From a virus, in IMG/VR virus record IMGVR_UViG_3300046517_001864, positions 3,880-67,879 of that record: a stretch of DNA of 64,000 nt. One strand, 5' to 3'. The notes below the pieces were generated by a model. The model was not told where the DNA came from. It made no database searches and was given only the letters and a program-made list of their open reading frames with translations. Within the stretch, counting starts at the first letter, position 1; each line of letters begins with the position of its first letter. The translations under genes and the position numbers were made by a program. Of this stretch, positions 3,760 through 34,253 are shown piece after piece.

Positions 3760-3765
3760 GAATAT

Positions 3766-3794
3766 ATTATAACACGTTCATGAAGTTTTGTCAA
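3766..3794 (-). promoter_or_regulatory. sigma70-type promoter with perfect consensus hexamers (TTGACA-17 nt-TATAAT) reading leftward
   Basis: Minus-strand sequence GTTGACAAAACTTCATGAACGTGTTATAAT; -35 at 3789..3794, -10 at 3766..3771; predicted start about 3759, i.e. at or adjacent to the ATG (leaderless or near-leaderless). Confidence 0.6.
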
Positions 3795-3922
3795 CTATCA
3801 ACACTTTACACCGAGCGAGCGATGAATTACCGCTGAGCTTCGCGAGCGAGGCGGCATTTTTTCCCCCGTTTCCCGTATTAACCCTGCTTAATCTTGGATT
3901 ATTATTCGACGCACGAACGGAT

Positions 3923-3992
3923 TTATCAACAACTTACGACGACGCCGCAAGGGGAAAAATCGATCGGATCGGTTCTTGTAACTTGTTGATAA
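3923..3992. repeat. 15-bp imperfect inverted repeat (TTATCAACAACTTAC / GTAACTTGTTGATAA) with 40-bp spacer in the divergent control region
   Basis: 14/15 complementary arms at 3923..3937 and 3978..3992. Confidence 0.45.
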
Positions 3993-4842
3993 TCCCTCCG
4001 ACCGAATTTCTAAAAATTTTTTCATTTTCAATTCTAACCTGCAGAAAACACGGGGTGCTAGCGCCTGTGTGGGAGCCATCGCGGACGAAACTGATTCGCC
4101 CTGCCCCGGCACTCGCTGGGTACCATCAGGTACCGTGGTCGTAGTACCAGGAGTATGTCTCGTGGGCGTGAGGGTGTAGGCCAGCCGTACCAATACTGTC
4201 GTACGTCCCACGTACGTATGACCTTCGTACTATGGGAGCACCCGCATATGGGGGCACCTGGGTAGTACCTTCGGTTCATATTGGGCTGTTTCGCCTTTTG
4301 TTCTACTTGACACCGGAATTTGTTACATGGTAAGAATGACCATGCACGAAAATACCGTTGTAATGGTCACCCTTCCGGCGTCGCCAATGTCTGAAGCCGA
4401 TCGGCGAATAGCTGATGAATTCCCAGGAGTTTTCACGACTGGCACGTCTCGCCTAGCCTGCACCCAGGTTGAGCTTGACTGGCTCACTGGAGGCGAAGAA
4501 ACGGCGAATGAGTAAAATTTACCGCCCAGGTTTACCGATTCGGGTAAAATTGACAAGGCGAACAATGGGCGAAGGCGTTGAAAACAAACGAGTTAAAGTT
4601 TGGCAAGGGGCTTGCACTTGTTTGGGCCGTCCGGCGAAACAAGCAAGCGAGTTAACCTGTAAGCCTTGCTGAGTGTAGCTGGATGTTCTGAGAGTCTCTT
4701 AGTGGGACGTTGTAGAGAGTACGGCATGGCTGGAGTGGAATCCAGATGGTTATGCACGATGAATGCCATGTGTAACGCCACACGTCCGCACTAAGGGGCT
4801 TTCGGATCGACAAACACGTGATGGCTCATTGGAGGGTATCCA

Positions 4843-5100
4843 ATGATTAAACCAAGACGTCAATACGCGGTATTTGTGAAACGTGGTCGTAAGTGGTCAC
4901 GCATCTCGCATGGATCGTATACGCTAGAAGCATGTCGCAGGCTGTATCAGGATGTGTTGCTAGCGGGATTCATGAACGGTGTGGCGACTGAACTGAAGCC
5001 AGTGTCGAAGATACCAGAGGATCGCTCTGTGATCGACGAGAACTGGCAGTGGTTTAAGATCGCGATTCATGCAACGGTTACAAACGCTCACGCAGCGTAG
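4843..5100 (+). CDS. hypothetical early protein (85 aa)
   Basis: First plus-strand gene after the 1.1-kb control region; SD GGAGGG 7 nt upstream. Confidence 0.5.
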   Translation: MIKPRRQYAVFVKRGRKWSRISHGSYTLEACRRLYQDVLLAGFMNGVATELKPVSKIPEDRSVIDENWQWFKIAIHATVTNAHAA

Positions 5101-5169
5101 GTGAATCGTCCGCAATGCAGGGGAGGTACCCTGCAATGAGTCATAACGTCATAGCAAAGGAGAACTACC

Positions 5170-5538
5170 ATGTCTACAATGGCAACGGTACGGCCAACAG
5201 GGGCAGCCCCTCTCGAAGGGACACCTGCAACGGCCAAACTGGCACCTAACGTGGAAGCGGTGTTGTTCAATGAAACGAAGGAATCGACTCCTACCAAGGG
5301 GATTGAAGCCGACGTGGAGATTGACGAAAAGGGGAATTACCATATTCTCATCCCTTCCACAATGGATTTTGGCAGAATCGGTGTGACCGAAAACGGTAAC
5401 ACATACGTCGGCGTGAAAGCCGATGCGATTACGCTGAAATTCACGGGCAAGAAAGCCGACGGTACGGACCACACACCGAAGGAGTTAGAGACGTATTCCA
5501 TCTCGTTCCGGCTTGGTCTGCGCATGAAGGCGAAGTAG
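5170..5538 (+). CDS. hypothetical early protein (122 aa)
   Basis: SD AAAGGAGAA upstream of ATG. Confidence 0.5.
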   Translation: MSTMATVRPTGAAPLEGTPATAKLAPNVEAVLFNETKESTPTKGIEADVEIDEKGNYHILIPSTMDFGRIGVTENGNTYVGVKADAITLKFTGKKADGTDHTPKELETYSISFRLGLRMKAK

Positions 5539-5772
5539 AAGCATACACAACACCTTTGCGGGTGGGGGCGATAGTACACCCGCGTAGTCTAAACGTGCCA
5601 CACCGTAGCCTGTAGGATCGGTGTGCCTGTCACAAGCCAGGAACAAACGCGAGTGGACACTGGTATAGGTATCAGTGGTGGAAACAGGTGTGTACATGCC
5701 TGTATGCCACAACCTGTGGGGGTACACGTGACTCCACAGCTCGACATCCGAAACGAGGGAAAGGAGTGTAGC

Positions 5773-6204
5773 ATGGCTACGCAGGATAGTACACGTGTGT
5801 TCAAGCTTCGGCTTGCGTCCGCTTCAATACGTAACGCGTCGGTAGTGATGACGGGTGACCGGTTGAATGCGTTGATTGCAGCCAAACAGATTGATCGAAG
5901 TAACAAGTATCTCAAATCCGAGCGTGGGTTTAACACGTCGATGCGAGTGTCGTCAGATCGTCCATCGCAAGTGAAGCGGTGGTCGGAAGGTATGACGGTT
6001 GGGTTTCAACGTACCACGTATGGTGCGGAGACGTCAGCGAAAGCGTATCGTCACGCTACAGCAGCATCGGAATGGCATCGGCGCAAGCGCGAGCAGGAGT
6101 TACTCGCGGATGCTAAACGACGTGGCGAGGTTACCACAACCACGAAATCACGTGCGTTACGAGTACCACCTGGACGGACCGTTGCGGAGGTGTTGTTTGC
6201 ATGA
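5773..6204 (+). CDS. hypothetical early protein (about 143 aa; ORF-track start 5623 probably too far upstream)
   Basis: Internal ATG at 5773 preceded by GAAAGGAG. Confidence 0.45.
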   Translation: MATQDSTRVFKLRLASASIRNASVVMTGDRLNALIAAKQIDRSNKYLKSERGFNTSMRVSSDRPSQVKRWSEGMTVGFQRTTYGAETSAKAYRHATAASEWHRRKREQELLADAKRRGEVTTTTKSRALRVPPGRTVAEVLFA

Positions 6205-6756: not shown

Positions 6757-6909
6757 ATGAAACTCGCGTTAGCTATTCTCGCACTTGGGTCGATGTTTAA
6801 CATCGGCTACGCTGCGGCTACTTACGGACGGCACACCATGCGTCCACGACCGATTCACGTACCAGCTCCGCGCCCACCGCGTCCGTTGCGGATGCCACGA
6901 GTCGCGTAA
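6757..6909 (+). CDS. small protein with N-terminal hydrophobic signal-like segment and Pro/Arg-rich tail (50 aa)
   Basis: SD GAAAGGAGAA before ATG 6757; ORF-track version 6511..6909 has poor N-terminus. Confidence 0.3.
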   Translation: MKLALAILALGSMFNIGYAAATYGRHTMRPRPIHVPAPRPPRPLRMPRVA

Positions 6910-7002: not shown

Positions 7003-7233
7003 ATGTCACACCGTAACCGCGAGGCATCACATATGGAGAAGATCGAACAGCAGAAGGTAACAGTTGTTCGGGAATCGGGAATCACTCCTCTGGTTGGCAC
7101 TCAGATGCCTACCGAACACGTTCATGTGGATAACTTGAATCAACACGCCGTGGCTCTCGGGCTAGCAGGTTGGGATGAACTATGTGTGGGGTGTGGGTAT
7201 CCGAACGATTGGTGCAGGTGTTTTGGCGGTTAG
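7003..7233 (+). CDS. hypothetical protein (76 aa)
   Basis: ORF in early block. Confidence 0.45.
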   Translation: MSHRNREASHMEKIEQQKVTVVRESGITPLVGTQMPTEHVHVDNLNQHAVALGLAGWDELCVGCGYPNDWCRCFGG

Positions 7234-10875: not shown

Positions 10876-12231
10876 ATGCCGCAGATTGAAATCCTCCAGG
10901 TTCGACCTGGAAATGTCGTGAGCTTTCTCGCCGAACCGCATTTGGTGCTTCAGCGGTTTAGCTACATGAACATCCATACGTTACTTCTCTTGAACAAAAA
11001 AGGCGAGGTAACGGAGCTTCGGGATTCGCAACTCAGTAAAACCGTTCCGACGGTGATGGAAAAGCTCGAAGACGCCGCAGCCTCAGAATGGCGAGAGAGT
11101 ATCGTCGGGAGCAAAACCGTTTTTGAAAAAGGTCACATGACCACCGGCGGCGGGTCGTGGATGCACATCGGAACTGATCCGGAGATTTTCGCGATGGATC
11201 GAAACGACCATGTGATTCCAGCGTTTGCGTATCTCCCTTCGAAACCCACCCCGAATCCGAACGGGCCACCCATTCCTGCGATATTCTTCGACGGGTTCCA
11301 AGCCGAATGGACAACAAATCCTTCCTCATGTCTCGGGCATCAAACGGATTATGTTCGGCAGGGGATGCAAGGTGTGCTCAACGCCGCACGGAAAATCGAT
11401 CCACAAGCAAAACTCTCACATCTGTCGGTAACCGACATCACATTCGATCCGACGCTACCCCCGGAGCGTTACCAGCTTGGATGCTCACCCTCAATGAACG
11501 CGTACGACGAACCCTCCGTGTTGATGGGGACGCCGGAGCTCCTTCCGTTTCGTTCAGCAGGATGGCATATGCATTTTCGAGGAACTACACCGCCGGTGAA
11601 TGCGGGTGATCCAGTGGATGGTTTCCATAGTGTTGATTCGAAAGAACTTGCCGCGAAGATCATCCAACTCGAAGATGCGATTCTTGGCACGGCATTGGTG
11701 AGTTTCGGCCAACATCACGTCGACCCCCGACGGAGGTTGATGTATGGTCGTGCGGGTGAATACCGGTTGGGGAAGACGCTCGAATACCGAGTGCCAGAGG
11801 TACTGATGGGATGCCATCCCGCCACGTGGAATCTGTTTTGGGACTTAGGCCGTGCGGTGTATTGGCTTGGGATGAGAGGGTTCAACTTCATCTGGGATGC
11901 CGATCCAACCGAGGTTCGAGAGGCGATCAACAACTCGAACGTGGCGTTAGCGCAGAAGATCCTTACGAAGAATATCCAGGTCCTGAATAGTATCTTCAAG
12001 TACCTCTACCGTGTGGGGCCGCTCAAGCCGACACCGGACTGGGCTCCGGATAAGATGGCTGTGAAAGCGATCCTCGAAGGTGCGAACGCGGTGTTGAACG
12101 ATCCAACAGCGGTGAGCAGGAATTGGCGGTTGGAGTCTGGCCAAACCTGGCAGAATGAAAGCCAAGGGCATCTCACCGGAACAAACTGGCGGACGTCTGT
12201 ACCAATGCTCCAAAGAGGAGAGAAACTATGA
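10876..12231 (+). CDS. large protein of unknown function (451 aa), flanked by the two GNAT-like paralogs
   Basis: SD AAGGAGACATATG; stop overlaps next gene (ATGA); no family recognised by eye. Confidence 0.6.
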   Translation: MPQIEILQVRPGNVVSFLAEPHLVLQRFSYMNIHTLLLLNKKGEVTELRDSQLSKTVPTVMEKLEDAAASEWRESIVGSKTVFEKGHMTTGGGSWMHIGTDPEIFAMDRNDHVIPAFAYLPSKPTPNPNGPPIPAIFFDGFQAEWTTNPSSCLGHQTDYVRQGMQGVLNAARKIDPQAKLSHLSVTDITFDPTLPPERYQLGCSPSMNAYDEPSVLMGTPELLPFRSAGWHMHFRGTTPPVNAGDPVDGFHSVDSKELAAKIIQLEDAILGTALVSFGQHHVDPRRRLMYGRAGEYRLGKTLEYRVPEVLMGCHPATWNLFWDLGRAVYWLGMRGFNFIWDADPTEVREAINNSNVALAQKILTKNIQVLNSIFKYLYRVGPLKPTPDWAPDKMAVKAILEGANAVLNDPTAVSRNWRLESGQTWQNESQGHLTGTNWRTSVPMLQRGEKL

Positions 12232-12821
12232 GCATACCCGCTCGGTTAGCAAACCTAATCAAACTCGATCCGTGGAAAACTCGGATTGAGAAACTCGAAC
12301 TCAGTGATATTCGTTTCGAAGGTGCATCGATTGCATCAAACTCGGATATTACTATTAAATTCCGGTATCAAAAGTGTGATCCGGTCATCACGGGTGTGAT
12401 TCCCGTCGGATGGTTTCCGGGATGCTGCGGGATTAACGTAATCCACCACATCAATTTTCCGTCGTGGGTGAAGTACGAAATCGACCCGGTGAAACGAGTT
12501 CCAATCGGACGAAAAGGAATCGGGACGTTGTTCATGGAGCTGGTGCTCGAAGCTTACAAGCAAGCTGGGCGAGAACGCACCGGGCCGGGGTTGTTACTCG
12601 CGGCCACAACGGGGTTCCAACGATCTGGGATAAAGATTCTCGAAAAGCTGAACTTCACCCAGGTTTGTACGGTCGTCAACCCTAACACCTCTCAAGAGGT
12701 AACGTTGTGGTATTACAAAACCTCGAAGTTCAAAACAGAGGCGGATATCAAACTCATGGAGAAAAGGAAAAAAGCTAAAGCAAAGCCGAAACCAAAGGCT
12801 AAACCGAAACCGAAACATTAA
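12228..12821 (+). CDS. GNAT-fold-like protein, paralog B, with C-terminal Lys/Ala/Pro repeat tail (KAKAKPKPKAKPKPKH)
   Basis: See paralog A; translationally coupled to the 451-aa gene. Confidence 0.5.
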   Translation: MSIPARLANLIKLDPWKTRIEKLELSDIRFEGASIASNSDITIKFRYQKCDPVITGVIPVGWFPGCCGINVIHHINFPSWVKYEIDPVKRVPIGRKGIGTLFMELVLEAYKQAGRERTGPGLLLAATTGFQRSGIKILEKLNFTQVCTVVNPNTSQEVTLWYYKTSKFKTEADIKLMEKRKKAKAKPKPKAKPKPKH

Positions 12822-13392
12822 CTTCTCATCGCCGCCCGTCGGGGTTACAACATAACCTGCTGCGGCATACTAACGGGATTAAAGCCATACCCAATGGCGA
12901 TGTGAAAATCCTCTACATGAATAACACGTCTAGATAACAGGATCTACCACGGATGACTCTTGCCTCTCCGATGTTTGTACGTCTCGAAGGAGAGTGCTCG
13001 ACACACGATGGTCTAGTGGGATCGAGTATTCGTAACCTCCATTGCAGGGCCGCTGAAGCCCTCGAAGGGTGTTACCGTAGCTCACTTAAGCCCACACGGC
13101 TCCTCAAGCCGTCATAAAGACCCTGGAGGCAAAAACGGAAAGAGCTCGGGAACCTATCCATCCGCGTGGGGTGGAGCAGAAACTCGCATCGGGCCGTGTA
13201 GAGGTGCCAAGGATCGTATTTGAAGTACAAGTTTACCAAGTAGCTGGCGCTGAGCTACCTAAGAATCTCCATATCTCATCGTGGCCGACGTTAGGTTCGT
13301 CAAAAGGCCGTGGAGGGGAACCGCTCCCACGGCATCGATCATGTTATGGAGAGATCTTAGATCGGGTTGGAGACGTAATTCCCGTGAGGTAA

Positions 13393-13439
13393 TTCATTTT
13401 GTGGGGAGTGTAGACTGGGTCAGGCGGGTTCGATTCCCG
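13393..13439 (+). ncRNA. tRNA-like minihelix (acceptor stem plus T-arm only) / truncated tRNA remnant
   Basis: GGGGAGT...CGGGTTCGATTCCCG...ACTCCCC: 7-bp acceptor-like stem with canonical T-arm (GGTTCGATTCC) but only 47 nt and no anticodon arm; sits in an 0.85-kb ORF-poor gap. Confidence 0.3.
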
Positions 13440-13764
13440 TGAACTCCCCTTCAAGTTTTCCACCCTTCGTTTGGTTAACACCTATGACGAATGGGGTACG
13501 CCGATTACCGGCGAGCTAAAGCACCGTTGGAGGCTAGGAAGCATGTTTATGTTGTAGAAGTTAGGACAGGTGCTAATCGGCGTCGCTTCGGCTTCGCCAT
13601 TAATATTAGCGTTATAACCTGCTGACAGAGTTTCTCACGGCATAACATACGGAAGGTCCGAGCGGAGGGTGGGAATAATAACCTATGAAAAACGAACTAA
13701 TCACAATCGGATGGATCGCGACGGGGATATTTATGCTTTGGGTAGCGTTTGCTCGGTGAGTGTT

Positions 13765-13944
13765 ATGGAATACCATTCATTATGTGATCACTGCGGGGAT
13801 CTGTTGATCGAAGATCATCGTCCCGCGCCGGGAGAATCGGTACATTGTTCTAGCTGTGGGATTACGTTCCCGCATGGACTTCGGGATTCCCATTGGCGGG
13901 AATGGTCTGATCCCTCCAAACCCGATTGGGCAGGTTGCGCGTGA
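13765..13944 (+). CDS. small zinc-ribbon protein (59 aa; CDHC...CSSC)
   Basis: Internal ATG of ORF-track 13669..13944; two CxxC pairs. Confidence 0.3.
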   Translation: MEYHSLCDHCGDLLIEDHRPAPGESVHCSSCGITFPHGLRDSHWREWSDPSKPDWAGCA

Positions 13945-14092
13945 ATGGTCTATGGGAGTTTTTCTTCTGCCCCGCTCACGGTGTGTTGCGATTCGTGGAC
14001 GGCGCTCATCTAACCTACGCTTGGGTATGGGTGCGTCATTCGAGCTACTACGTCCAGGCGTGGTTGTTATCACGTAAGGAGATTGTAAAATA

Positions 14093-14854
14093 ATGTACGC
14101 GTCTTACATTCCCGACAAAGGTACGATAGTCATGTACCCGGATTACAACTCCGCGATGGCGGATCGATTCCCGTATGAAGAAGTTGATTCCGACGCGTAT
14201 AACAAACTCATCCCAACGTTAGAATCAAACAGTCGGGTTTGTTTGACGTGTAGACGCGCTCGACTCGAACACTTCCGGGATCGATGTCGAACAATCGCGG
14301 ATTATGTAACAGGAGGACTTCCAACCGGCCATCCGATTGTTCGTCCACTTGTGGATATCATCATCTGTTCGTGTGGGGTCTCCGTAAATCGGGTGAAGAT
14401 CAACGGGAAAACTCGGTGCTACAAAGCCACCCGAGAGGAAATTCGTCGTTCGATCACAGGGAGATTAGCCACTACCCTGGCGAACGTACCTCAACCGAAT
14501 TGGACACTTGAGGCCCCAGGTCGATTCGCGCCAGACGTGTTACCTCGGCCAAGAGCTGGACGGACTCCGAGAACCGATCGGGATAATCTTGTCTTCAACG
14601 CAAGAATCGAGACAGATAACCTCACCCCACTTCAACAACGGGTTCGTCAGCTTACAGAAGCTATCATCGATCGTGATCGTCCAATGTTTCAGTGGGATCC
14701 GATGGTACGTCCGACAGCACCTCAACCGGAACCAGCCGAACCAAGAGTAACCGATCCGCCTCGTGTAGCGGATAACCAATTCACGGCTCTCCGACTAGAT
14801 GAGACAACCTTCGAACGGGTGGATGATGACATTCAACGAGAGGAGGAAGATTAA
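14093..14854 (+). CDS. hypothetical protein (253 aa), first gene of amidoligase cluster
   Basis: SD AAGGAGATTGTAAAATAATG; acidic C-terminus. Confidence 0.55.
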   Translation: MYASYIPDKGTIVMYPDYNSAMADRFPYEEVDSDAYNKLIPTLESNSRVCLTCRRARLEHFRDRCRTIADYVTGGLPTGHPIVRPLVDIIICSCGVSVNRVKINGKTRCYKATREEIRRSITGRLATTLANVPQPNWTLEAPGRFAPDVLPRPRAGRTPRTDRDNLVFNARIETDNLTPLQQRVRQLTEAIIDRDRPMFQWDPMVRPTAPQPEPAEPRVTDPPRVADNQFTALRLDETTFERVDDDIQREEED

Positions 14855-14857
14855 CCC

Positions 14858-15559
14858 ATGATTCACGGACGTTTTCACGGCGTAACAATCGTCAAACTCT
14901 CGCGAGCTGAGGGGGTGGAGATGCTAGCTTACCTCGGTTGGACTCGGATGATGTATGAAAAACTCATCCGACCGAAAGCTACGACCGAAAGTCCAACGGT
15001 CAAGCGACTACTTTCCTCTGTGCATGGGATTGAAACATGTATTCGAATGTACATACCTGGCGGTGGGTGGACCCCCGTAGATGCGCTGTACCATGAACGG
15101 TTAAACCAAAACAACCTCCTCCAACCAGGAGCAGCGGATGAAGGGTTATCGATTCTGTTAGGTTTTTCCGAAGAATTCATTCGGTCCATTAGCTCATACC
15201 CGAATCTATTCTCCGCTCCAACCGTCACCCGATTGTGTAAATCCGTTGATCGAAGGTTTCCGATCCGGGAATACCACCCCAAATCCGCTACGCTCGAACA
15301 ACGAACTCATTCCATCGAGTTAGTTGTACAACTATTCCAAATCCTCTCTGGGAATAACTCCGGAGAACTTTCCGGCGCGAATGATCGACAGTTGTTGTAC
15401 AACCAATCAACCGGGTTGGTGGAGATGTTGCGGATCTCCCACGATTTGAAGAACATCATCGCAAAGATCGATCATTGGACCGAAGTACTTGGTGCAGAAC
15501 GTCATGTATCGAAAGAGTTTGTTACAAAGACATTAAACACAAGGAGTATTTGTGGTTAA
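14858..15559 (+). CDS. hypothetical protein (233 aa)
   Basis: Tightly packed between 14093 gene and amidoligase (overlaps amidoligase start by 8 nt). Confidence 0.55.
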   Translation: MIHGRFHGVTIVKLSRAEGVEMLAYLGWTRMMYEKLIRPKATTESPTVKRLLSSVHGIETCIRMYIPGGGWTPVDALYHERLNQNNLLQPGAADEGLSILLGFSEEFIRSISSYPNLFSAPTVTRLCKSVDRRFPIREYHPKSATLEQRTHSIELVVQLFQILSGNNSGELSGANDRQLLYNQSTGLVEMLRISHDLKNIIAKIDHWTEVLGAERHVSKEFVTKTLNTRSICG

Positions 15560-16757
15560 CAAGGAAAAATTCTGCGTCAACTGCCTTCGTCGGGCTCGGG
15601 ATACGGAAAAAGCTTTAAAAACCGTCCACTCCCATCCGCTACGGCTCCCGAAGGAACACTGCGCGATCTGCCATCGATGCTCTTCTTGCCGGTGTATCTG
15701 TGTCATCTGCACGAAGTGTAAAGCACGTGTTGCAATGGCCCCAACGAAGTACTGCTCGCACTGTCGGATGTGTAAGAAGTGCGACTCATGCAGGAAAATG
15801 CCGCACTACCTTTCCACCGATCGGTGGGTGGGGACGCGGACATCTTCGCTCATCAACCCGTTGAATCGTACGCTTGGGTTGGAACTTGAGATTGCAAACT
15901 GGGGTACGTTGGAGAACTACCTCATGAACTACGCTCACTACGACCGAGCGCATGATTGGTCGGTGAAGCCATCTGAATCAGAGATGGTCCTCCAACCGTT
16001 AAAAGGGGATTACTTCCTCAAAGCGATGATGGAGTTGGCCGTAACCCTTGCAAAATCAAAAGCTTCGGTGAATGAAACCTGTGCGTTACACGTACACGTC
16101 GGAGGAACGGAGTTGTCATACTGGGAACTTCGACGTCTCCTGCGGGTATACGCGAAGCTTGAGCAAGAGATATACGATTATCTCATTTTACCACATCGGA
16201 GGGACACTCCGACGGTAGTTCACTACTGTCAGATGATGACTAAGCCTCACATCCATTGTGATCGATGTGATCGGTACGATCAACAGTATCCCCGAACCCG
16301 TCGGGTGCTGGAGGATCTCCACACTACGGTAGCTCGAATGGACCGGGCGCAGACCACCACAGATCTCAAAGCATGTTTTTTGAAGATGCTGTATAACATC
16401 CCCCGACCTTCGGAGAAGTATTCGAAAGAGCATCTTCCATCTCGGCTCCAAACCCTCCAAACCCACAAAGGCGGGAGATACGAATGGTGCCGGTACGTTG
16501 GGCTCAACCTCCACGCGTGGCAGTATCGTGGTACGGTCGAATGGCGAATGAAAGAAGCCACTACCCAGCTTGACGAGCTGATCTGCTGGCCGTTGTGGTG
16601 TGGGTGGTTTGTGGAAACCATCACCAAAATGACCGAGAAAGACTCCACCCGTTGGTGGACGTTGATCGAATTCACCGAGCGGTACATGCCAAAGTATCTC
16701 ACTGCATGGGTGAGTAATAAAGTTTCGCAAAGAAAGGTAGGACCGACGTTGTCATGA
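15552..16757 (+). CDS. amidoligase of the GCS2/YbdK (glutamine synthetase-like) fold with N-terminal multi-Cys zinc-ribbon region
   Basis: 'TLGLELEIAN' (G-x-E-x-E start motif) and 'ALHVHVG' (HVHVG motif) typical of gamma-glutamyl-cysteine-ligase-2-type amidoligases; N-terminal CxxC x6 cluster. Confidence 0.55.
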   Translation: MVNKEKFCVNCLRRARDTEKALKTVHSHPLRLPKEHCAICHRCSSCRCICVICTKCKARVAMAPTKYCSHCRMCKKCDSCRKMPHYLSTDRWVGTRTSSLINPLNRTLGLELEIANWGTLENYLMNYAHYDRAHDWSVKPSESEMVLQPLKGDYFLKAMMELAVTLAKSKASVNETCALHVHVGGTELSYWELRRLLRVYAKLEQEIYDYLILPHRRDTPTVVHYCQMMTKPHIHCDRCDRYDQQYPRTRRVLEDLHTTVARMDRAQTTTDLKACFLKMLYNIPRPSEKYSKEHLPSRLQTLQTHKGGRYEWCRYVGLNLHAWQYRGTVEWRMKEATTQLDELICWPLWCGWFVETITKMTEKDSTRWWTLIEFTERYMPKYLTAWVSNKVSQRKVGPTLS

Positions 16758-16948
16758 GTAAACTTTGGACTCCAAAGGACTACTGGCGTAAGGAAATCAT
16801 CGACGTCGCACTGAAAGAGATCGATCGAAACCAGGCGATTGTCTACTATCATCGAATGGACTGTCCACATCCGGAGTTTGTTCCGAAAGGAAACTTCTCG
16901 TCAGTCTGTGCGGTCTGTGGAAGAAATAAGGAGTTTATTAAATCATGA
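16754..16948 (+). CDS. small Cys/His protein (64 aa)
   Basis: ATGA overlaps on both sides; CPHPEF...CAVCGRNK. Confidence 0.4.
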   Translation: MSKLWTPKDYWRKEIIDVALKEIDRNQAIVYYHRMDCPHPEFVPKGNFSSVCAVCGRNKEFIKS

Positions 16949-17157
16949 AAACCCAATTCTGTTCCTTTTGTGGGAAAGACACGCTCCACAACCCATTGAA
17001 GAAAACCCCAAAAGGTGAACAGTTCTACCGTTGTGTGGTATGCGGGAACCCCCGCCGGTACAATGGAAAGAACTTTGCAATAGCTCTTGCGCCGGGTTCG
17101 AGAGCTGTGAACCTTCCCTACCCGATCCCACCGAAAGGTGCGTTGGGGGCATCATGA
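16945..17157 (+). CDS. zinc-ribbon protein (70 aa; CSFCGK...CVVCGNP)
   Basis: Two CxxC pairs; ATGA coupling. Confidence 0.45.
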   Translation: MKTQFCSFCGKDTLHNPLKKTPKGEQFYRCVVCGNPRRYNGKNFAIALAPGSRAVNLPYPIPPKGALGAS

Positions 17158-17447
17158 TGTTTGGATACAAACAAGGAGAAATCGTTGAAACCGATACCGG
17201 ACCTCACTTTGTGGTCCAAAATTCTTGCTACGGAAACATTGGCTTCGCATCGCTCAACCCCGTGGAAGGTCCGCCGACGAAAACGCAGCAGGAGTACCGG
17301 GACTATCACGCCGAGCAGAAGCGACGAGCGGAAGCCAAAGCCGCTGCGCTCCGGGAACGAATCCGTAATCGAATAGAACCCGATCTATCCGAAGAAAAAT
17401 TAATCGACCTTATCGTGGACCTTATCCACGAAGAAAGCGAGTACTAA
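17154..17447 (+). CDS. hypothetical protein (97 aa; ORF-track start 17031 likely too far upstream)
   Basis: ATG at 17154 overlaps upstream stop (ATGA); helical Glu/Arg-rich C-terminus. Confidence 0.4.
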   Translation: MMFGYKQGEIVETDTGPHFVVQNSCYGNIGFASLNPVEGPPTKTQQEYRDYHAEQKRRAEAKAAALRERIRNRIEPDLSEEKLIDLIVDLIHEESEY

Positions 17448-17450
17448 CTC

Positions 17451-18482
17451 ATGTGTGGAATATTCGGCTTTAGCCGTGTAACGGATGTGACCAAACAGAT
17501 GGCCATTCCGTTGATGTGGGAGATGGAGGATCGAGGACGGGACTCTTGGGGCTGCTCCAACGGAATCGAATGGATCAAACAGATCGGTCCGATCACCAAA
17601 ACGTGGCGGAAATACGAATCCGAATGGCACCAGTGGGAACGAGCAATCTTTCACACCCGTGCTGCTTCGCAGGGGAAGGTCTCCATCGAAAACCAACACC
17701 CGTTCCGTATTGACCATACGGAAGAGGATCAATCCGTCCGCACCCTCGTCGGAATCCACAACGGTGTCGTCTCCAATCATGACCAACTTAACGCCAAGTA
17801 CAAACGGGATTTTGATTGTGATACCCCGCATATCTACATGGCCCTCGCGGGGTTCTCTCCTACTCAGGAGATTCACGGGTATGGTAACCTGGCGTGGTAT
17901 GATTACTCGACCACAAACCCGACTCCAATCCTGCACTTCCTCCACTTTAACGCAGGGAACCTGAACGTCGCGAAGCTCGAATCTGGTGAGATGGTGTTCT
18001 GTTCCACGAAAGATCCCATCGATCGTGCTGCGGATTTCGCAGGAACCAAAATCGATCGGTACTTTCACCTGGAAGGGGATAAGATTTACTGGGTGGAACT
18101 GAACTACCAGGATGTCCCAGGATCGGACATGCTCATCGCTGGGCCGAAGCAATCCTTCGGCGGGAGGTCGATTCAAGGAACTGGTTGCGCTACTCCTTGG
18201 GATGGGCACCGTCCAGTTGGGTTACCCTTGTACGAGCACATCGCCGGAGCGAATCCCCGCAGGATGGGTCCTTCCCAAGTCCGGAACACGAATATATCCG
18301 AACTTGGCTCAGAGGATCGACAGAACAACATCTGCCTTAACAATCAATGCAAGAACAAAGTGAAACAATCTCGGCGGAAACAGCTCCTCTGTGAGACCTG
18401 CCTCGTAGCGGTAAAACAAAACCTCGCTTACATGACCACAATTCATGATCGGGTTCGTGGCCGAATGGGAGGTGCTGAATGA
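17451..18482 (+). CDS. class-II (Ntn) glutamine amidotransferase domain protein with C-terminal Cys cluster
   Basis: N-terminus MCGIFGF (catalytic Cys2 as in PurF/AsnB/GlmS); C-terminal CLNNQC...CETC. Confidence 0.65.
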   Translation: MCGIFGFSRVTDVTKQMAIPLMWEMEDRGRDSWGCSNGIEWIKQIGPITKTWRKYESEWHQWERAIFHTRAASQGKVSIENQHPFRIDHTEEDQSVRTLVGIHNGVVSNHDQLNAKYKRDFDCDTPHIYMALAGFSPTQEIHGYGNLAWYDYSTTNPTPILHFLHFNAGNLNVAKLESGEMVFCSTKDPIDRAADFAGTKIDRYFHLEGDKIYWVELNYQDVPGSDMLIAGPKQSFGGRSIQGTGCATPWDGHRPVGLPLYEHIAGANPRRMGPSQVRNTNISELGSEDRQNNICLNNQCKNKVKQSRRKQLLCETCLVAVKQNLAYMTTIHDRVRGRMGGAE

Positions 18483-25803: not shown

Positions 25804-26166
25804 ATGAGGAATACTCTAACACAGGTTGAAGATCGGATATGCGAAGCGAAAGCCTCGACCCATAGTTCCGATAGAGCATCTCTTCTCACACGTCGTAGGT
25901 GGTTGCGGACACTGGTAATGTTGTCCTTAGGTGTATTCGGGATTCGTAATGCATCCTCAGGTGCTTCCACCCCAACGTGCGAGGATACGATTAACAAGTT
26001 TCAATGTTTGTTCAACGCGTGGGTGGAGCAGGTGAAGGAAAACAATCCTAACATCCTCGATGCGAAGCATCCCACAGCTATCCAAGACGAAATCGCCACG
26101 TGGCAAGTGGTACGTCACGAGTGGCGGGGGTTTGAGAAGCAGATTAACAAGATGTATGGAATTTAA
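25804..26166 (+). CDS. hypothetical protein (120 aa)
   Basis: SD GGAGAAATAATG; stop overlaps polymerase start (TAATG). Confidence 0.45.
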   Translation: MRNTLTQVEDRICEAKASTHSSDRASLLTRRRWLRTLVMLSLGVFGIRNASSGASTPTCEDTINKFQCLFNAWVEQVKENNPNILDAKHPTAIQDEIATWQVVRHEWRGFEKQINKMYGI

Positions 26167-28838
26167 TGTCAGAATTCAACAAAGCATTCATCGAACGTAA
26201 ACTCGCACCGAAGCCAGAGTTCTGCTCCCGGTGCCCCATCAACGAATTTACCGAAGGTTACGTCCCACTCGAACGAGGATCGGGAACGGAGCTTTGGGTA
26301 GGCGAGGCGGCAGGGGATGAGGAGGCAAGTCGTGGAAAACCTTTCATTGGCGGTGCTGGTAGTTGGCTTAACAGTATGCTTCAGTCTGCTAGGATTTCTC
26401 GTAGCAGCATTAGTCTTATTAACACTATCGGCTGTCATCCACCTGACAATATCTACCCTGGTTCAGATAAGTGGAATTTTACTGATCGTGCCGTTGCTCG
26501 GCAGGCGATTGATTACTGTCGTCAACAACACCTTGAACCAGCGTTAGTCCAGCTCAAACCAACCCGGATCGTGGCTCTTGGCAACGAGGCGATGAAAGCT
26601 GTTACGCCTCGGCAGGGTGTATTGCAATGGCGCGGATCGCCGTTACCACTGAAGGGAGCTCTGCACGCAGGCCCCCGGGTGGTACCAACCTTACACCCTG
26701 CTTTCCTAATGCGACAGGCGGGATTGTTCTCAGTCGCGGTGAAAGACTTACGTCGTGGGTTGGAATTACCTCCGGAGAATTATGATCTATACCCTAGCAT
26801 TGATACTGTTAAAGCGTTTACTGCGACTACGTTTTCTTTTGACTTCGAGTGGGACACGCTCAATAACATCACGATGTGTGGTCTCAGTGATCGATGGTAC
26901 CATGCGATTGTTGTGCCGTTTGTTCAACCTTTTATCACCGAGCTTAAGAGGATATTCGAAGCAGCAGAATGCCTCATTGGTCACAATATCGTCGATGCCG
27001 ATACGAGCTACTTCGATTCGTTGGGATGGAAGGTAACGGCGAGGCTTCATGATACGATGCTCGCGCAGCATCTGATCCAGCCCGACATGCGGCATGGACT
27101 TGGGTTTGTCGCGTCAGTGTTTTCGTCAAAGGTGTTTTGGAAAGGTAGTGGGGAGGAAACAGAAGATGATGCTGGAAATATTCTTCCAACCGGAGCTCAA
27201 TGGCGGACGTGGGATAGCCCCGACGCAATACCTCGGGAGTTTGGAGGTTACGGAGGCTGTCGTTCGAGCGATGAAGCTTGGAGATTATATAACGCTAGAG
27301 ACACCGATGGGACACTCCAATGCGAAGCTCGTATCTTTCGGACCCTCCGGGATTTCGGGCAGGAGTTCGTCTATACGAACGTCTCGGTCCCAGCGGCGTA
27401 CATCTGCCGAGACATCAACCGAACAGGTCTCAGGATTAACCCCAACAAAGTCACTGAAATTAGGGATACACTCTCGCGAGAAATCTCCGCGACGGAAGCC
27501 CTCCTCCCGGAAGGGTTAGCAGCGTATGAAAAACCAATCACCAAACAAATTGAGGCTCCTGCTGGAACGTATGCGCCGAAAGTCTTACGGTGTAAGGGAA
27601 CTCGAAAAGCTGGAACAGTTCACGATCTGGTTGAGTGGACAGTATCCACTCCTGGAGTATGCGGATGTCCTACGTGTGGTAAGGAATTCTCTCCTAAACT
27701 TAAACAAGTTAAACGAATCAAAGTTCCAGGAACTAAACGGATTGTGCCGTGGAACAGCACGGCACAAGTAATCACGTATGCTAAAGCCAAAGGTTGTAAA
27801 GAAGTCCCGCACGCGAAGACCGGTAATTCTTCTGGAGACAAACGTGCCCGTAAAATTTGGGGCCGTGAACATACAGAATTCACCCTTGTGGATACTCTTA
27901 AGAGGCTTGTCACACAGCGAAATAGCTTCGCTAAAGAAGCATTGCAAGGTCTTGACTGGGTCAGGTTTCGCCTCGCAGTTACGGGTACTTCCGAAGGACG
28001 TCTCTCATGTTCTGGAGTCTATCCTGCGAACCTGAACCTCCAGAATCAACCCAAAGCGATCAAAAAGATCTTCATCCCTGATAAAGAAGGTTATGGAATT
28101 CTCTCCCATGATATCGTCCAAGGAGAAAACATGCTCACCGCATGGCTGGCGGAGGATTGGCCACGATGGGAGAGACTCAATACTCCGGGGTTTGATGAGC
28201 ATAGTTACATGGCTAGTCGGTTTTTCAATACCCCGGTTGGTCCAAATGACCCACTCAGAAAACCTGGTAAGGTTATCAATCACGGTCGGAATTACGGACT
28301 CGGTGAGCGGAAAACACAAGACTATCTGTCTTTGGAAGGATTCCAATTCTCGATTGCGGATATCCGAGAGATGATAAATATATGGAAAAAGGAAAACGCT
28401 CGTACCGCAGCATGGCAACAGGAGACCGTACACCTCGCACAGAAGCAAAGCTACCTCGACAATCCGTTCGGAAGACGGAGGTGGTTCCAAGGGCGAGACT
28501 TCGCTACCAAGGCATTGGCATTCTTACCGGCTTCGACACTAGCCGATATGGTTCTTCGAATGATGTTAGCTCACTACCCAGAGAGATTTGGATCAGAGAT
28601 TTTAAATTTAGGACTTGGTGTTTGTACATCGCTAATGGAGAACTGGCGTTTGGCTCTACAAGTCCACGACGATCTCGTATTCATCGGTCCAGATGAATCC
28701 CACCGCGAGATGGCCCAACGCACCCGAGCGGTGATGTCGCAGGAATGGAAAGAGCTTGGAGGTTTCCACTTCCGGGTGGAGACGAAGTATAGCACCACGA
28801 CATGGGGTGATGGGAAGGTTCTGGAGATGGTGGCATGA
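26166..28838 (+). CDS. family A DNA polymerase with N-terminal family-4 uracil-DNA-glycosylase-like domain and 3'-5' exonuclease domain
   Basis: N-term 'GEAAGDEEASRGKPFIGGAGSWLNSML' = UDG family-4 motif A, 'HPAFL' = motif B; 'FDFEWDT' exo I; 'RKPGKVINHGRNYGLG' = PolA motif B (RRxAKxxNFGxxYG); 'QVHDDLVF' = motif C. Confidence 0.9.
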   Translation: MSEFNKAFIERKLAPKPEFCSRCPINEFTEGYVPLERGSGTELWVGEAAGDEEASRGKPFIGGAGSWLNSMLQSARISRSSISLINTIGCHPPDNIYPGSDKWNFTDRAVARQAIDYCRQQHLEPALVQLKPTRIVALGNEAMKAVTPRQGVLQWRGSPLPLKGALHAGPRVVPTLHPAFLMRQAGLFSVAVKDLRRGLELPPENYDLYPSIDTVKAFTATTFSFDFEWDTLNNITMCGLSDRWYHAIVVPFVQPFITELKRIFEAAECLIGHNIVDADTSYFDSLGWKVTARLHDTMLAQHLIQPDMRHGLGFVASVFSSKVFWKGSGEETEDDAGNILPTGAQWRTWDSPDAIPREFGGYGGCRSSDEAWRLYNARDTDGTLQCEARIFRTLRDFGQEFVYTNVSVPAAYICRDINRTGLRINPNKVTEIRDTLSREISATEALLPEGLAAYEKPITKQIEAPAGTYAPKVLRCKGTRKAGTVHDLVEWTVSTPGVCGCPTCGKEFSPKLKQVKRIKVPGTKRIVPWNSTAQVITYAKAKGCKEVPHAKTGNSSGDKRARKIWGREHTEFTLVDTLKRLVTQRNSFAKEALQGLDWVRFRLAVTGTSEGRLSCSGVYPANLNLQNQPKAIKKIFIPDKEGYGILSHDIVQGENMLTAWLAEDWPRWERLNTPGFDEHSYMASRFFNTPVGPNDPLRKPGKVINHGRNYGLGERKTQDYLSLEGFQFSIADIREMINIWKKENARTAAWQQETVHLAQKQSYLDNPFGRRRWFQGRDFATKALAFLPASTLADMVLRMMLAHYPERFGSEILNLGLGVCTSLMENWRLALQVHDDLVFIGPDESHREMAQRTRAVMSQEWKELGGFHFRVETKYSTTTWGDGKVLEMVA

Positions 28839-29188
28839 TCTGGCCTGATGGACATGTTAGTGATGAAAAGTTTGAGAAGATCTACACATGGATACCGGCG
28901 CATAATAATAAACGTCAATATGCTTTTATCGGCTGTATCTATCCTGAACACCGAATCTTTCAAACTACTTTCTATCGTCATGATGATTATTTCGCAATCC
29001 CAAACGAAGAAGTGATGATGTTACGATGGTTAAAAAATCATGATCGATTTGATACTATTCGATTAGTAAGCCGTGATCGTGAATACATTGGAGATCTTAC
29101 CTGGGAAGTTTTTATTTCTAATCTCGAAGATAACGCACCAGGGAATAAGTTCATGAATAATAAGTTCGTACCCACGTGTTTAGTATAA
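28835..29188 (+). CDS. hypothetical protein (117 aa)
   Basis: ATGA-coupled to polymerase. Confidence 0.45.
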   Translation: MIWPDGHVSDEKFEKIYTWIPAHNNKRQYAFIGCIYPEHRIFQTTFYRHDDYFAIPNEEVMMLRWLKNHDRFDTIRLVSRDREYIGDLTWEVFISNLEDNAPGNKFMNNKFVPTCLV

Positions 29189-29203
29189 AGGAGGGACACT
29201 AAG

Positions 29204-29392
29204 ATGTCTCAGGAAGATCGGATAGCGGAGCTGGAACTCGCGTTGGAGAACCTGCTAGAGTGCTTTGAGGAAACCCCCACAGGGTTTGATATTGAAACCT
29301 CGGATGGGATAGGTCGGATAACCGAAGCCGCCGAGGAGATGGTTATTCAAGCTCGGGAGGCGTTGGATCACGACGATGCTACGGGAGAATAA
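29204..29392 (+). CDS. small acidic protein (62 aa)
   Basis: SD AAGGAGGGACACTAAGATG. Confidence 0.4.
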   Translation: MSQEDRIAELELALENLLECFEETPTGFDIETSDGIGRITEAAEEMVIQAREALDHDDATGE

Positions 29393-29853
29393 TGGCTGAT
29401 CAATTTGAAGTAGTAGTTACAGCGTTTATCTTTCAAGAAGATAAACTTCTCCTAACTCGGCGATCACCGAATAAAAAACGTTTCCCGGGATTATGGACCG
29501 TTCCAGGCGGGCATCTTGAGAAATCGGATTTTCAGAATCGTTCAAAAGATGGTGTGTATTGGTATGATGTTCTTGAGATTGCTCTACAACGAGAAGTACG
29601 AGAAGAAGTTGGTTTAGAAATCAATAATATTCGTGTTGTAGAGAATCTTGCAACTATCGATCCTTCTGGTGCGGTGCTAGTTTTATCTTGTACCGCGAAC
29701 TACGTTAGCGGAAATGTAACATTACAACAAGATGAAACAGATGCATTTGGTTGGGTAGAAAGAAATGAGGTTAAGAATTATGATCTTATCAGCGGTTTAC
29801 CGGAAGAAATCGAACGAGCGTTTGAAAGGCGAGTAAGTAATGCTGCGAATTAA
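29392..29853 (+). CDS. Nudix hydrolase
   Basis: 'LLLTRRSPNKKRFPGLWTVPGGHLE' plus Nudix box variant '...ALQREVREEVGLEI' (REUxEExGU). Confidence 0.7.
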   Translation: MADQFEVVVTAFIFQEDKLLLTRRSPNKKRFPGLWTVPGGHLEKSDFQNRSKDGVYWYDVLEIALQREVREEVGLEINNIRVVENLATIDPSGAVLVLSCTANYVSGNVTLQQDETDAFGWVERNEVKNYDLISGLPEEIERAFERRVSNAAN

Positions 29854-30028
29854 AATTGGCTGTCCTAACCATCCTCGGTACAATCCCGAGCAGGGAGAGG
29901 GCGCGATTCGAGGGGCGTGTAAGTTTTGTTATGGGTTGTTTGGGTTATACAATCAATACCTAATCCTTCAAAGTATGGAATGGCGAGATCGACATACCGA
30001 AACCGAGGATGAACTTGGCGGAATATAA
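29840..30028 (+). CDS. small Cys-containing protein (62 aa)
   Basis: ORF overlapping Nudix stop. Confidence 0.3.
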   Translation: MLRIKIGCPNHPRYNPEQGEGAIRGACKFCYGLFGLYNQYLILQSMEWRDRHTETEDELGGI

Positions 30029-33471: not shown

Positions 33472-33988
33472 TCGGCTGATCCAATTCTTCATCGACTCAC
33501 TCAAACTCTTCCAGTTCTTCGCCGTGGTGCGAAGCTACGAAGGTGGGGTGATACTTCGGTTTGGAAAATTCCACCGCATGGGGAACCTCGGCTTCAACTG
33601 GCTTTGGCCATTCTCAATCGAAGAACTTCACTTTGATCACATCGTCTTGCGAAGCTCCGCCGTCGGACCACAATCCGTCACAACCAAAGACGGTGTGAAC
33701 GCGGTGATATCCATCGTAGTGATGTTTCGAATCGATGACGTGAAACAATGGTTGCTCGAACTCGATCACGGCCCGACTGTACTCGACAACCTCGCCTGCG
33801 GACTGATGTCCCGTAAGGTGATGGATCACACCTGGGATGAGCTCGTAGCGATGGATCTCGCGGATGAACTCGCGAAGATCGTTCGACGTCAGGCGAAGAA
33901 ACTCGGGGTGGATATCATCCAAGTGCAGGTAACAGATTTTACGAGGAGCCTATCTTTCCGGTTGATTGGTCACCAACTGATGGGATAG
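33464..33988 (+). CDS. SPFH/band-7 (stomatin/prohibitin/HflK-like) domain protein
   Basis: 'VVRSYEGGVILRFGKFHRM', '...VTTKDGVNAVISIVVMFRIDDV' match SPFH core pattern (V..ge.gvv.rfGk ... TkD...v.vd..v.yrI.D). Confidence 0.6.
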   Translation: MFDRLIQFFIDSLKLFQFFAVVRSYEGGVILRFGKFHRMGNLGFNWLWPFSIEELHFDHIVLRSSAVGPQSVTTKDGVNAVISIVVMFRIDDVKQWLLELDHGPTVLDNLACGLMSRKVMDHTWDELVAMDLADELAKIVRRQAKKLGVDIIQVQVTDFTRSLSFRLIGHQLMG

Positions 33989-34052
33989 GTAAGGAGGCGG
34001 TTGAGGACGCCGGTCTGATGGAGCCGGAAGTCCTCCCGCCTAGTGAGAGAGT

Positions 34053-34253
34053 ATGATAACAGATAAGATATGTCCCGTATGTAAACATCCTCGACATGAA
34101 CATCATCGGGGTTATGGTGGCCCACCATACCACTACCGATGTTGGTTCATGTGGGATCCTGATTCAGACTTTCCCGATCCGTGTTATTGTGAGCATGAGT
34201 TTCATGATGGAGTTGATTGGGAAGGAAGACCGCAAACCAAAATGAAACGTTAG
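34053..34253 (+). CDS. small Cys/His-rich metal-binding protein (66 aa), last gene of rightward block
   Basis: CPVCKHPRHEHH...YHYRCW...CYCEHEFHDG. Confidence 0.4.
   Translation: MITDKICPVCKHPRHEHHRGYGGPPYHYRCWFMWDPDSDFPDPCYCEHEFHDGVDWEGRPQTKMKR

Follow-up and report, generated by a model that had tools for sequence, protein, structure and literature searches.

We have analysed a stretch of viral DNA of 64,000 nucleotides (nt), positions 3,880 to 67,879 of the IMG/VR record IMGVR_UViG_3300046517_001864 (hereafter, the window), and in particular an island within it that is poor in open reading frames (ORFs). As read from its sequence, this island is a single multi-domain structured RNA of ~840 nt, which runs from 12835 to 13675 on the plus strand and consists of three independently closed domains, D0, D1, and D2. 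The RNA was previously undescribed; its conservation extends over a clade of uncultivated phages, and it codes for no conserved protein. We hold it to be highly probable that the island forms a conserved structured RNA. In the window, the linker between D1 and D2 also carries a minihelix that resembles the acceptor and T-arm half of a tRNA, and we propose that it serves as a handle for processing enzymes. To this explanation as a whole, a three-domain RNA together with a processing-handle minihelix, we assign a probability of roughly 0.55. The parts of the RNA are the following.

12835..12877, plus strand: D0, with a closing helix CCCGU/ACGGG around 33 nt, followed by AUUAAAGCC.
12910..13204, plus strand: D1, the most widely conserved domain, delimited with a 15-sequence alignment, RNAalifold, and nhmmer.
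13205..13457, plus strand: the linker between D1 and D2, 253 nt long here and 7-483 nt in relatives, which holds the tRNA-like module.
13458..13675, plus strand: D2, with the closing helix UUCCACCCUUCG/CGGAGGGUGGGAA, delimited with pair counts in the alignment and nhmmer.

A preliminary description of this DNA, made from its letters alone, had reported an ORF-poor island of ~850 base pairs (bp) in an operon of overlapping genes, and this is confirmed: there is no convincing ORF from the TAA at 12819-12821 to the ATG at 13686, the nearest start codon 3' of the island, which is followed by the ATG of a zinc-ribbon ORF at 13765. The island contains only short mechanical ORFs of at most 73 amino acids (aa), those on the plus strand being 44-73 aa long. 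The genes on either side overlap or abut one another (10876-12231 / 12228-12821 upstream; 14093-14854 / 14858-15559 / 15552-16757 downstream).

Related contigs of uncultivated phages, designated L001, L002, and so on, were gathered from JGI, ENA, Logan, and IMG/VR by means of the COOH-NH2 ligase that is encoded upstream of the island; the ligases of these relatives are 38-57% identical to that of the window. Besides the window, at least 14 contigs of uncultivated phages carry the RNA, and in all of them it lies between the same genes of the amide-ligase operon. Every relative fetched has an ORF-poor gap of 220-1200 bp. On its 5' side is the ligase gene, or else a homologue of the 197-aa gene that adjoins the island here, and on its 3' side is a small gene, whose product is a zinc-ribbon protein wherever we have read it (the window, L001, L002, L004, and L018). 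The gaps have a series of sequence blocks in common: GAAUAAYACG; CGGAUGA-hairpin-CACACGAU; GGUGAAAC ... AACAGUAACC; GGCAAAACGGAAAG; AGAAACUYGC; and ACGAAUGGGGUA-hairpin-GCUAAAGYACCGU. Further hairpins are inserted at variable positions, some of them capped by loops of the UUCG type.

When nhmmer profiles of D1 and D2 were run against 118 loci, their matches were restricted to the loci just described. Each profile has one match in the window, on the plus strand in both cases (D1 at 12910-13197, E 2e-27; D2 at 13457-13675, E 5e-29), and the D2 profile also recovers L020, which was not part of its seed. An alignment-based scan for the ligase yielded 80 loci in IMG/VR, of which two only, the L001 and L020 contigs, carry the RNA; it occurs in none of the ~78 more distant ligase-bearing contigs. 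A pattern scan of IMG/VR for D1 gave nine matches, the sole real one being L020. The DNA of the island has no nucleotide match in 50,697 phage records, a search of IMG/VR for close relatives with the 197-aa protein and exact DNA motifs found none, and the eight matches of a pattern scan of bacterial and archaeal genomes were all chance, with no host or prophage found.

Evidence for a folded RNA comes from the way in which paired positions change together among these relatives. Owing to the big insertion, the islands were aligned with MAFFT E-INS-i. D1 is built from the helix P1 (CCUCUACAUG/CGUGUAGAGG), the junction AAUAACACG, the segment GGCAAAAACGGAAAG, and a hairpin with AGAAACUCGC; in addition, a helix CCACG/CG-AUGG surrounds an internal loop GAUGA/CACA with a variable hairpin. 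In the alignment of 15 sequences, RNAalifold finds compensatory changes at 11 of the 13 pairs of D1. For the two internal helices of this domain, 85.6% of cells are paired, as compared with 67.3% after shuffling and 30-41% in slid controls, and both sides have changed in 41 cells versus 16 in the shuffled alignments; on four of five measures, none of 500 shuffles reaches the observed value.

The same pattern is seen in D2, whose core ACG-AAUGG-GGUA-[variable hairpin]-GCU-AAAGYAC-CGU (AAAGCAC in the window) contains nearly invariant G·U and U·G pairs. Over 21 pairs, 90.2% of cells are paired versus 77.8% after shuffling and 32-51% in slid controls; cells in which both sides have changed number 38 versus 10.6; and the observed values are reached by 0 of 500 shuffles on all five measures. 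The strand-specific G·U pairs conserved in D1 and D2 fix the strand of the RNA as plus. The conserved internal loop AAUGG / GCUAAAG of D2 seems to resemble the 11-nt tetraloop receptor UAUGG/CCUAAG.

The closing helices call for a different test, which does not depend upon the alignment. Automatic placement with RNAduplex proved too greedy; the helices were therefore set by eye, and the pairing of each 5' strand with its cognate 3' strand was then compared with its pairing with non-cognate strands. Over D0, P1 of D1, and the closing helix of D2, the cognate strand is the top-ranked partner in 34 of 39 cases. The strands of P1 differ across all 15 members while their complementarity is kept: the cognate strand comes first in 13 of the 15, with a mean duplex energy of -12.6 kcal/mol versus -4.0 kcal/mol for non-cognate strands. 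The closing helix of D2 measures 12-16 bp, and its cognate strand comes first in 12 of 14 members. For the helix of D0, recognised in ten members, the cognate 3' strand is the top partner in nine (mean duplex energy -8.2 versus -1.6 kcal/mol); the stretch inside this helix is 32-35 nt long in every case, UUAAW usually comes next after the helix, and an inner hairpin with the loop GCUACC is common to five members. Two contigs, L001 and L007, have D1 only, without D2. In L002, the segment 'CTCCACCA' was considered as part of the D2 helix and rejected; the D2 helix of that contig is UAUUCCAUCAGGG/CCCUGAUGGAAUC, which lies just downstream.

A separate observation concerns the relation of D0 to D2. 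The loop of D0 at 12846-12855 (UACAACAUAA) is a perfect 10-nt complement to the D2 hairpin region at 13547-13556 (UUAUGUUGUA). This complementarity could represent a long-range kissing contact, but chance alone would produce a single match of this kind in 1.1 kilobases (kb).

We turn now to the linker between D1 and D2, in which the preliminary description had noticed a tRNA-like motif. The features concerned are these.

13403..13449, plus strand: the tRNA-like minihelix, with a 7-bp acceptor-like stem GGGGAGU/ACUCCCC, a hairpin GAC-UGG-GUC, and a T-arm.
13424..13440, plus strand: the T-arm itself, with a 5-bp stem GCGGG/CCCGU and a 7-nt loop UUCGAUU.
13378..13387, plus strand: an upstream copy of ATTCCCGTGA, found by repeat search and not conserved in L004.

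The motif GGGGAGT-(15 nt)-CGGGTTCGATTCCCG-TGA-ACTCCCC does occur, letter for letter as it had been given, at 13403-13449 rather than at 13393-13439 (GGGGAGT at 13403-13409, ACTCCCC at 13443-13449). Both of the parts claimed for it, a perfect 7-bp acceptor-like stem and a canonical T-arm, are found in the sequence. The T-arm has the 5-bp stem and the 7-nt loop UUCRANY of a tRNA, and its loop is the canonical T-loop sequence; a bulge of 2-3 nt (GA or UGA) precedes the 3' strand of the acceptor-like stem, which is followed by the tail UUCA. The second copy of ATTCCCGTGA, said to recur 35 nt upstream, is in fact separated from the first by a gap of 45 nt (55 nt from start to start), and a 10-mer in two copies within ~1 kb is at chance level. 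We might speculate, from complementarity, that the CCCGU of the upstream copy pairs with the 5' strand GCGGG of the T-stem as an alternative to the T-arm.

Taken by itself, the motif as read from the window is indistinguishable from chance, and its significance comes from the comparison with relatives. The exact sequence GGTTCGANTCC occurs once in the window, and with one mismatch there are 5 occurrences against 7.35 expected, that is, no enrichment; the fold energy of the minihelix alone is unremarkable (z-score -0.7 to -1.0). ARAGORN reports no tRNA or tmRNA, in standard or permuted form, in the 64-kb window. Nor does the element form a tRNA cloverleaf: only 15 nt lie between the 5' strand of the acceptor and the T-arm, and there is no Rfam tRNA match at E≤10. 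The comparison with Rfam that the preliminary description had recommended yields no match at gathering scores across the island, and at E≤10 it yields only the T-arm of tmRNA, as a local match of 15 nt (13425-13439) that scores 13.6 bits against a gathering score of 47. A tmRNA, including the permuted form, was considered and rejected on two grounds, namely that the stretch between the acceptor strands is only ~35 nt long and that the gene does not have the permuted order; between these strands there is neither a tag reading frame nor pseudoknots.

We therefore rely on the relatives. We scanned for T-arm-like hairpins, defined by a loop TTCRANN and a stem of at least 4 bp, whose background over all the DNA collected is 0.095 per kb per strand. 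The linkers of 4 of 14 members contain such a hairpin (the window, L004, L019, and L020), where ~0.13 would be expected in the 1354 nt concerned (Poisson tail ~1e-5), and the same scan found none in D0, D1, or D2. The homologous T-arms are those of L004 at 7202-7220 (loop UUCGAAU), L019 at 5656-5674 (UUCGAAC), and L020 (UUCAACU). The window and L004 both have GGGTTCGAWTCCCNTGAAC, and the two elements are thus homologous.

Acceptor-like stems of 7 bp flank a hairpin in three members, namely the window, L002, and L019. In L019, at 5647-5682, the stem GGAGCCA/UGGUUCC surrounds a 6-bp T-arm (z-score -2.5). In L002, at 6788-6843, the stem GGGGCGC/GCGCUCC surrounds a small D-like hairpin and a 7-bp hairpin, and is followed by ACCA (z-score -3.2). 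The elements of L002 and the window can be aligned, with AUUUU-R-U before G1 in both, and their stems differ by the compensatory changes A5-U to C5-G and U7-A to C7-G, L002 having in addition G3·U70. This G3·U70 together with ...GCUCCACCA matches the acceptor end of tRNA-Ala and tmRNA and the identity element for alanyl-tRNA synthetase. The L002 element, we observe, has a hairpin without a T-loop where the T-arm would be.

In full or in part, the module is thus present in 5 of 14 members, and nothing like it is seen in the other 9. From these sequence comparisons we regard the module as a real, recurrent but optional element that mimics tRNA, and we think it likely to be under selection. As a separate matter, the linker of L019 holds an ORF of 126 aa with its own Shine-Dalgarno (SD) sequence (5711-6091), between the minihelix and D2; no Pfam family matches it at E≤5, and it contains no endonuclease domain.

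What might such an RNA do? We think it probable that the RNA is transcribed within the operon mRNA, as an internal segment of it, because no promoter-like or terminator-like site flanks it: a scan for sigma-70-type consensus sites revealed no such promoter near the RNA on the plus strand, and no intrinsic terminator was found there. We propose that the tRNA-processing enzymes of the host would then use the minihelix as a handle, with a cut by RNase P on the 5' side of G13403 and trimming by RNase Z or exonucleases after ~13449-13450. The cut in the linker would free D0-D1 as a stable RNA, while D2 would stay in front of the zinc-ribbon and amidoligase genes as their 5' leader. We put this role of the minihelix forward tentatively; we favour it because a mimic of the acceptor and T-arm is what RNase P and RNase Z recognise, and because there are precedents in RNase P substrates, t-elements, and mascRNA. 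Bacterial RNase P cuts polycistronic mRNAs, OLE RNA, and the precursor of the C4 RNA of phages P1 and P7 (PMC4919922), and both the t-elements of plant mitochondria and mascRNA are tRNA-like processing signals that work on this principle in eukaryotes (PMC1920247, PMC11693755).

Several features of the module weigh against this proposal. Its distribution is patchy, with a T-arm in just 4 of 14 members and an acceptor-like stem in just 3; the module is therefore not essential to the core function of the RNA. In the window, the T-arm is absent from the minimum-free-energy fold of the 266-nt linker context, and forms only in the centroid. A tRNA has a continuous acceptor/T stack, but in the window 2-3 nt (in L019, 1 nt) break the helices on their 3' side, and the minihelix of the window encodes no CCA. 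Moreover, the T-arm of L004 sits in a three-way junction without an acceptor stem, and there a purely structural T-loop fits better.

This last point leads to the first of the rival explanations for the module, according to which the T-arm is purely architectural: its T-loop would make a tertiary contact that helps the two big domains to pack, and it would be neither cut nor recognised as tRNA. T-loops make such contacts in RNase P RNA, in rRNA, and in stem I of the T-box. L020, like L004, keeps a T-arm without a convincing acceptor stem; what is conserved between the window and L004 is the T-arm together with UGAAC; peripheral elements of large RNAs are typically variable; and the receptor-like loop of D2 would point to an RNA rich in motifs of the tertiary type. 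However, we have identified no partner for the T-loop, and the T-arm is missing in 10 of 14 members. The stems of the window, L002, and L019 all start with GG, and the G3·U70 and ACCA of L002 look more like mimicry of a tRNA end than like a generic helix. On balance we consider the architectural explanation unlikely, if less so than the other rivals. Another possibility is a role in cis: the RNA in its entirety, or D2 at the least, would be a giant leader that governs how the zinc-ribbon and amidoligase genes are translated, either as a riboswitch would or by binding a protein. The 3' strand of the closing helix of D2 is purine-rich and SD-like and ends 10 nt before the ATG at 13686, and under this hypothesis it would double as the ribosome-binding site. 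Indeed, the closing-helix strands resemble an anti-SD/SD pair (UUCCACCCUUCG / CGGAGGGUGGGAA), and for three members, the window, L006, and L014, there is no plausible SD other than one inside the helix or at its edge. The distance from the end of D2 to the following start codon is always 9-45 nt, and in members with D1 only, such as L001, the end of D1 sits just before the SD. There are many invariant unpaired nucleotides, as in an aptamer, and the neighbouring enzymes use glutamine and ATP, so that a metabolite signal is plausible. On the other hand, L002, L009, L011, L012, L018, and L019 have a separate SD downstream of the helix; thus, sequestration of the SD seems not to be the conserved feature. 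The RNA, at 500-850 nt, is far above the size of known riboswitches, no known aptamer class in Rfam matches it, and in compact phage genomes one would expect it to abut the next gene anyway. We find a leader role rather unlikely, while noting that it is compatible with processing at the minihelix.

A more far-reaching reading would have the minihelix excised, given CCA, and aminoacylated, such that the amide-bond enzymes of the operon use it as a dedicated tRNA-like carrier or donor encoded by the phage, with D1 and D2 as a scaffold or a GOLLD-like cage. The hints for it are the alanine identity pair G3·U70 of L002 with its encoded ACCA; the position of the RNA, which is always inside the operon of COOH-NH2 ligase, 197-aa protein, Amidoligase_2, and glutamine amidotransferase (GATase); and a weak resemblance of the upstream 197-aa protein to GNAT-fold enzymes, some of which use aminoacyl-tRNA. 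We judge this reading very improbable. The preliminary description, for its part, had listed three candidate readings. The nearest of these is a tRNA-like structured RNA, which understates the case, for the minihelix is a small, non-universal module of a three-domain RNA of ~840 nt. A second candidate, that the minihelix is a decayed tRNA gene or a tRNA 3' half kept as an attP core, is not supported, and we put it down as highly improbable. The T-loop sequence is canonical, an alternative register (GCGGG-UUCGAUU-CCCGU + GAACUCC-C) makes a formally correct tRNA 3' half, and phage RNAs of the GOLLD type can hold true tRNAs in their linkers. Yet the 22-mer GGGTTCGATTCCCGTGAACTCC, which comprises the T-arm and the 3' strand of the acceptor, is in no tRNA gene of 185,579 species genomes and is unmatched elsewhere in them, among which the true host may not be represented. 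No relative has a full tRNA at this position, no tRNA is called in any related locus or within the 64-kb window, and there is no integrase domain in the 36 window ORFs scanned, which are a part of all ORFs, most being too divergent to name. The 5' acceptor strand, for which an att core has no use, is still present, and it changes in step with the 3' strand when the window and L002 are compared, which indicates selection on the helix, as opposed to decay or a DNA core.

The readings that place the signal in DNA or in protein fare no better. The third candidate of the preliminary description was a replication origin, and a long non-coding stretch amid early or middle genes is what might suggest an origin or some other DNA-level site. 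Against this, the island contains no iterons or repeat families, only two-copy repeats at chance level; its G+C content is 0.50-0.52 without a dip, and there is no turn of the skew at 12-14 kb. Its conservation consists of compensatory base-pair changes and of G·U pairs specific to one strand. We consider an origin extremely improbable. The preliminary description had also envisaged the opposite outcome, in which conserved structure is lacking and a small protein-coding gene is detected instead, but the structure is conserved and the translated matches are short. To be sure, mechanical ORFs do exist on the plus strand, and in some relatives gene callers put ORFs of 67-155 aa on the opposite strand. 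However, when window ORFs were compared in translation with the gaps of the relatives, the matches extended over at most 58 aa, and the significant ones (E < 1e-3) over 17-27 aa; these fall on the same blocks whichever strand is read, and in several frames, which places the conservation at the level of nucleotides. The called ORFs vary in strand and position among relatives, and the indels, which are located in hairpins, are not in multiples of three. That the island hides one or more small protein-coding genes therefore strikes us as scarcely credible. Finally, a group I or group II intron was tried and rejected: there is no Rfam intron match, the flanking ORFs are complete, and the position is fixed in all relatives.

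It is natural to ask how the RNA compares with known systems. Covariance models of GOLLD, ROOL, OLE, raiA, and HEARO give no match, at the gathering score or at E≤10, to the islands of the window, L002, L006, and L019, and seven whole loci have no match at E≤5 to any large-RNA, intron, or aptamer family in Rfam; no Rfam family fits any of the members compared, the compact ones included. Weak matches to sX9, Acido-1, guanidine-II, hammerhead, and snoRNAs fall far below the gathering scores, and we take them as chance.

The closest architecture, by analogy only, is that of ornate phage RNAs of the GOLLD/ROOL type. GOLLD is encoded by phages and exceeds 800 nt, and its two regions, one conserved and the other less so, are connected by a linker in which tRNAs are found in some cases; its function is unknown (PMC12286853). 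The present RNA is like GOLLD (RF01998), and more loosely like ROOL and OLE, in being phage-encoded, several hundred to more than 800 nt long, and rich in helices and in invariant unpaired nucleotides. It resembles GOLLD further in having two conserved regions and a poorly conserved linker, which in some cases holds a tRNA in GOLLD and a tRNA-like element here. It differs in that its location is within a protein-coding operon and not beside tRNA islands, and in that its linker element is a minihelix rather than a full tRNA. Because no covariance model matches, we would treat it as a new family of the general GOLLD kind, and not as a member of GOLLD.

Other likenesses concern single parts of the RNA. 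With t-elements, with mascRNA and menRNA (from the 3' ends of MALAT1 and MEN-beta), and with RNase P substrates, it shares an acceptor/T-arm mimic placed within a longer transcript at a boundary between functional units; the mimic here differs in the bulge of 2-3 nt between the T-stem and the 3' strand of the acceptor and in being found in a minority of members. The t-element, mascRNA, and non-tRNA substrates of RNase P are cut by RNase P and RNase Z (PMC1920247, PMC11693755, PMC4919922). The tRNA-like domain of tmRNA and the tRNA-Ala microhelix likewise combine an acceptor stem and a T-arm without an anticodon arm, with a T-loop that is the consensus; by contrast, the window has G3-C70 in its stem and a UUCA tail, and has no tag frame or ring of pseudoknots between the acceptor strands. 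As in riboswitches and other leaders, the RNA lies immediately 5' of a gene, contains a long-range helix with an SD-like 3' strand, and has invariant unpaired nucleotides, but it is three to five times larger, and its helix does not include the ribosome-binding site in about half of the members.

Very few classes of large, intricately folded natural RNA have been described: the rRNAs, RNase P, group I and II introns, OLE, GOLLD, ROOL, raiA, and HEARO. Each new class has so far led to new biochemistry or new structures. In the present case, covariation across three domains was obtained from only ~15 sequences, the context in an amide-bond operon is clean and invariant, and the RNA is small enough to be transcribed for probing and for cryo-electron microscopy. 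The module offers a candidate, in a bacterial virus, for tRNA-like 'punctuation' of an operon transcript. Should the RNA prove to have a functional link with the amidoligase genes, it would also help to explain a gene module that is widespread in phages and as yet without a known role.

The genomic setting of the RNA is of interest in its own right. The window belongs to a very divergent tailed-phage genome, and amide-bond enzymes lie around the island: a phiEco32-type COOH-NH2 ligase (10876-12231), an Amidoligase_2 protein (15552-16757), and a class-II GATase (17451-18482). In cultured phages that have a similar enzyme module, the genes are tightly packed, without a gap the size of the RNA. 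The conserved amide-bond module, at 10876-18482 on the plus strand, also includes the 197-aa protein, the zinc-ribbon protein, and two unassigned proteins of 253 and 233 aa. The genes nearest to the RNA are as follows.

12228..12821, plus strand: the upstream 197-aa gene, defined by its ORF and by an alignment of 11 homologues.
13686..13760, plus strand: a hydrophobic ORF of 24 codons (MKNELITIGWIATGIFMLWVAFAR), directly 3' of the RNA, read from the sequence.
13765..13944, plus strand: a zinc-ribbon protein of 59 aa (CDHC...CSSC), with only weak zinc-ribbon matches in Pfam.

The 197-aa gene lies directly 5' of the RNA in most relatives and is missing in L007, L011, and L014. Its product carries a conserved signature FPGCCG..VIH..NPNT, and its RKGIGTLF may be a GNAT-like motif. 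A profile of the protein has a single, weak match to a solved structure in the PDB, a GNAT enzyme with E 0.27. It matches no Pfam or PHROG family, a word-based search for homologues came back empty, and an AlphaFold model from the single sequence has a predicted local distance difference test score (pLDDT) of 51, so poor that Foldseek matches to it are meaningless. Given the E-value of the PDB match, the lack of a Pfam match, and the low confidence of the model, the GNAT-like assignment is a lead only. The tail of the protein (12771-12818) is rich in Lys, Pro, and Ala (KKAKAKPKPKAKPKPKH) and is encoded by an imperfect DNA repeat spaced at 24 nt; the C-terminal tails of its homologues are different, or acidic.

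On the 3' side, every relative has a small gene, which outside the window encodes 106-131 aa and whose start codon lies 9-45 nt past D2; its four-cysteine motif was read in L001, L002, L004, and L018. The 24-codon ORF of the window is absent in L004, whose zinc-ribbon ORF (MNELEYHALCDHCG...) begins at the ATG equivalent to 13686, and the zinc-ribbon ORF of the window begins 5 nt past the stop of the 24-codon ORF. The segment 13686-13760 may therefore be an insertion or a frameshift relative to L004, or it may encode a small membrane peptide.

Elsewhere, the window codes for an RNase H-like exonuclease and an AAA_24 ATPase, and, at 26166-28838 on the plus strand, for a protein of 890 aa that combines an N-terminal domain of the UDG superfamily with a 3'-5' exonuclease and a family-A DNA polymerase. 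The nearest phage relatives of this polymerase are only ~24-26% identical. The gap that follows its gene (28838-29392 / 29001-30000) has the lowest G+C content of the window (0.427) and a strongly positive GC skew of 0.22, and it could hold a further feature that does not code for protein, for example a promoter cluster, a terminator, or an origin. There is an 8-bp hairpin at 29424-29446. The coding strand switches divergently at ~3760-5170, where the GC skew changes sign near 4 kb, and convergently at 33988-34585, and these switch regions are more plausible places than the island for an origin or for terminators.

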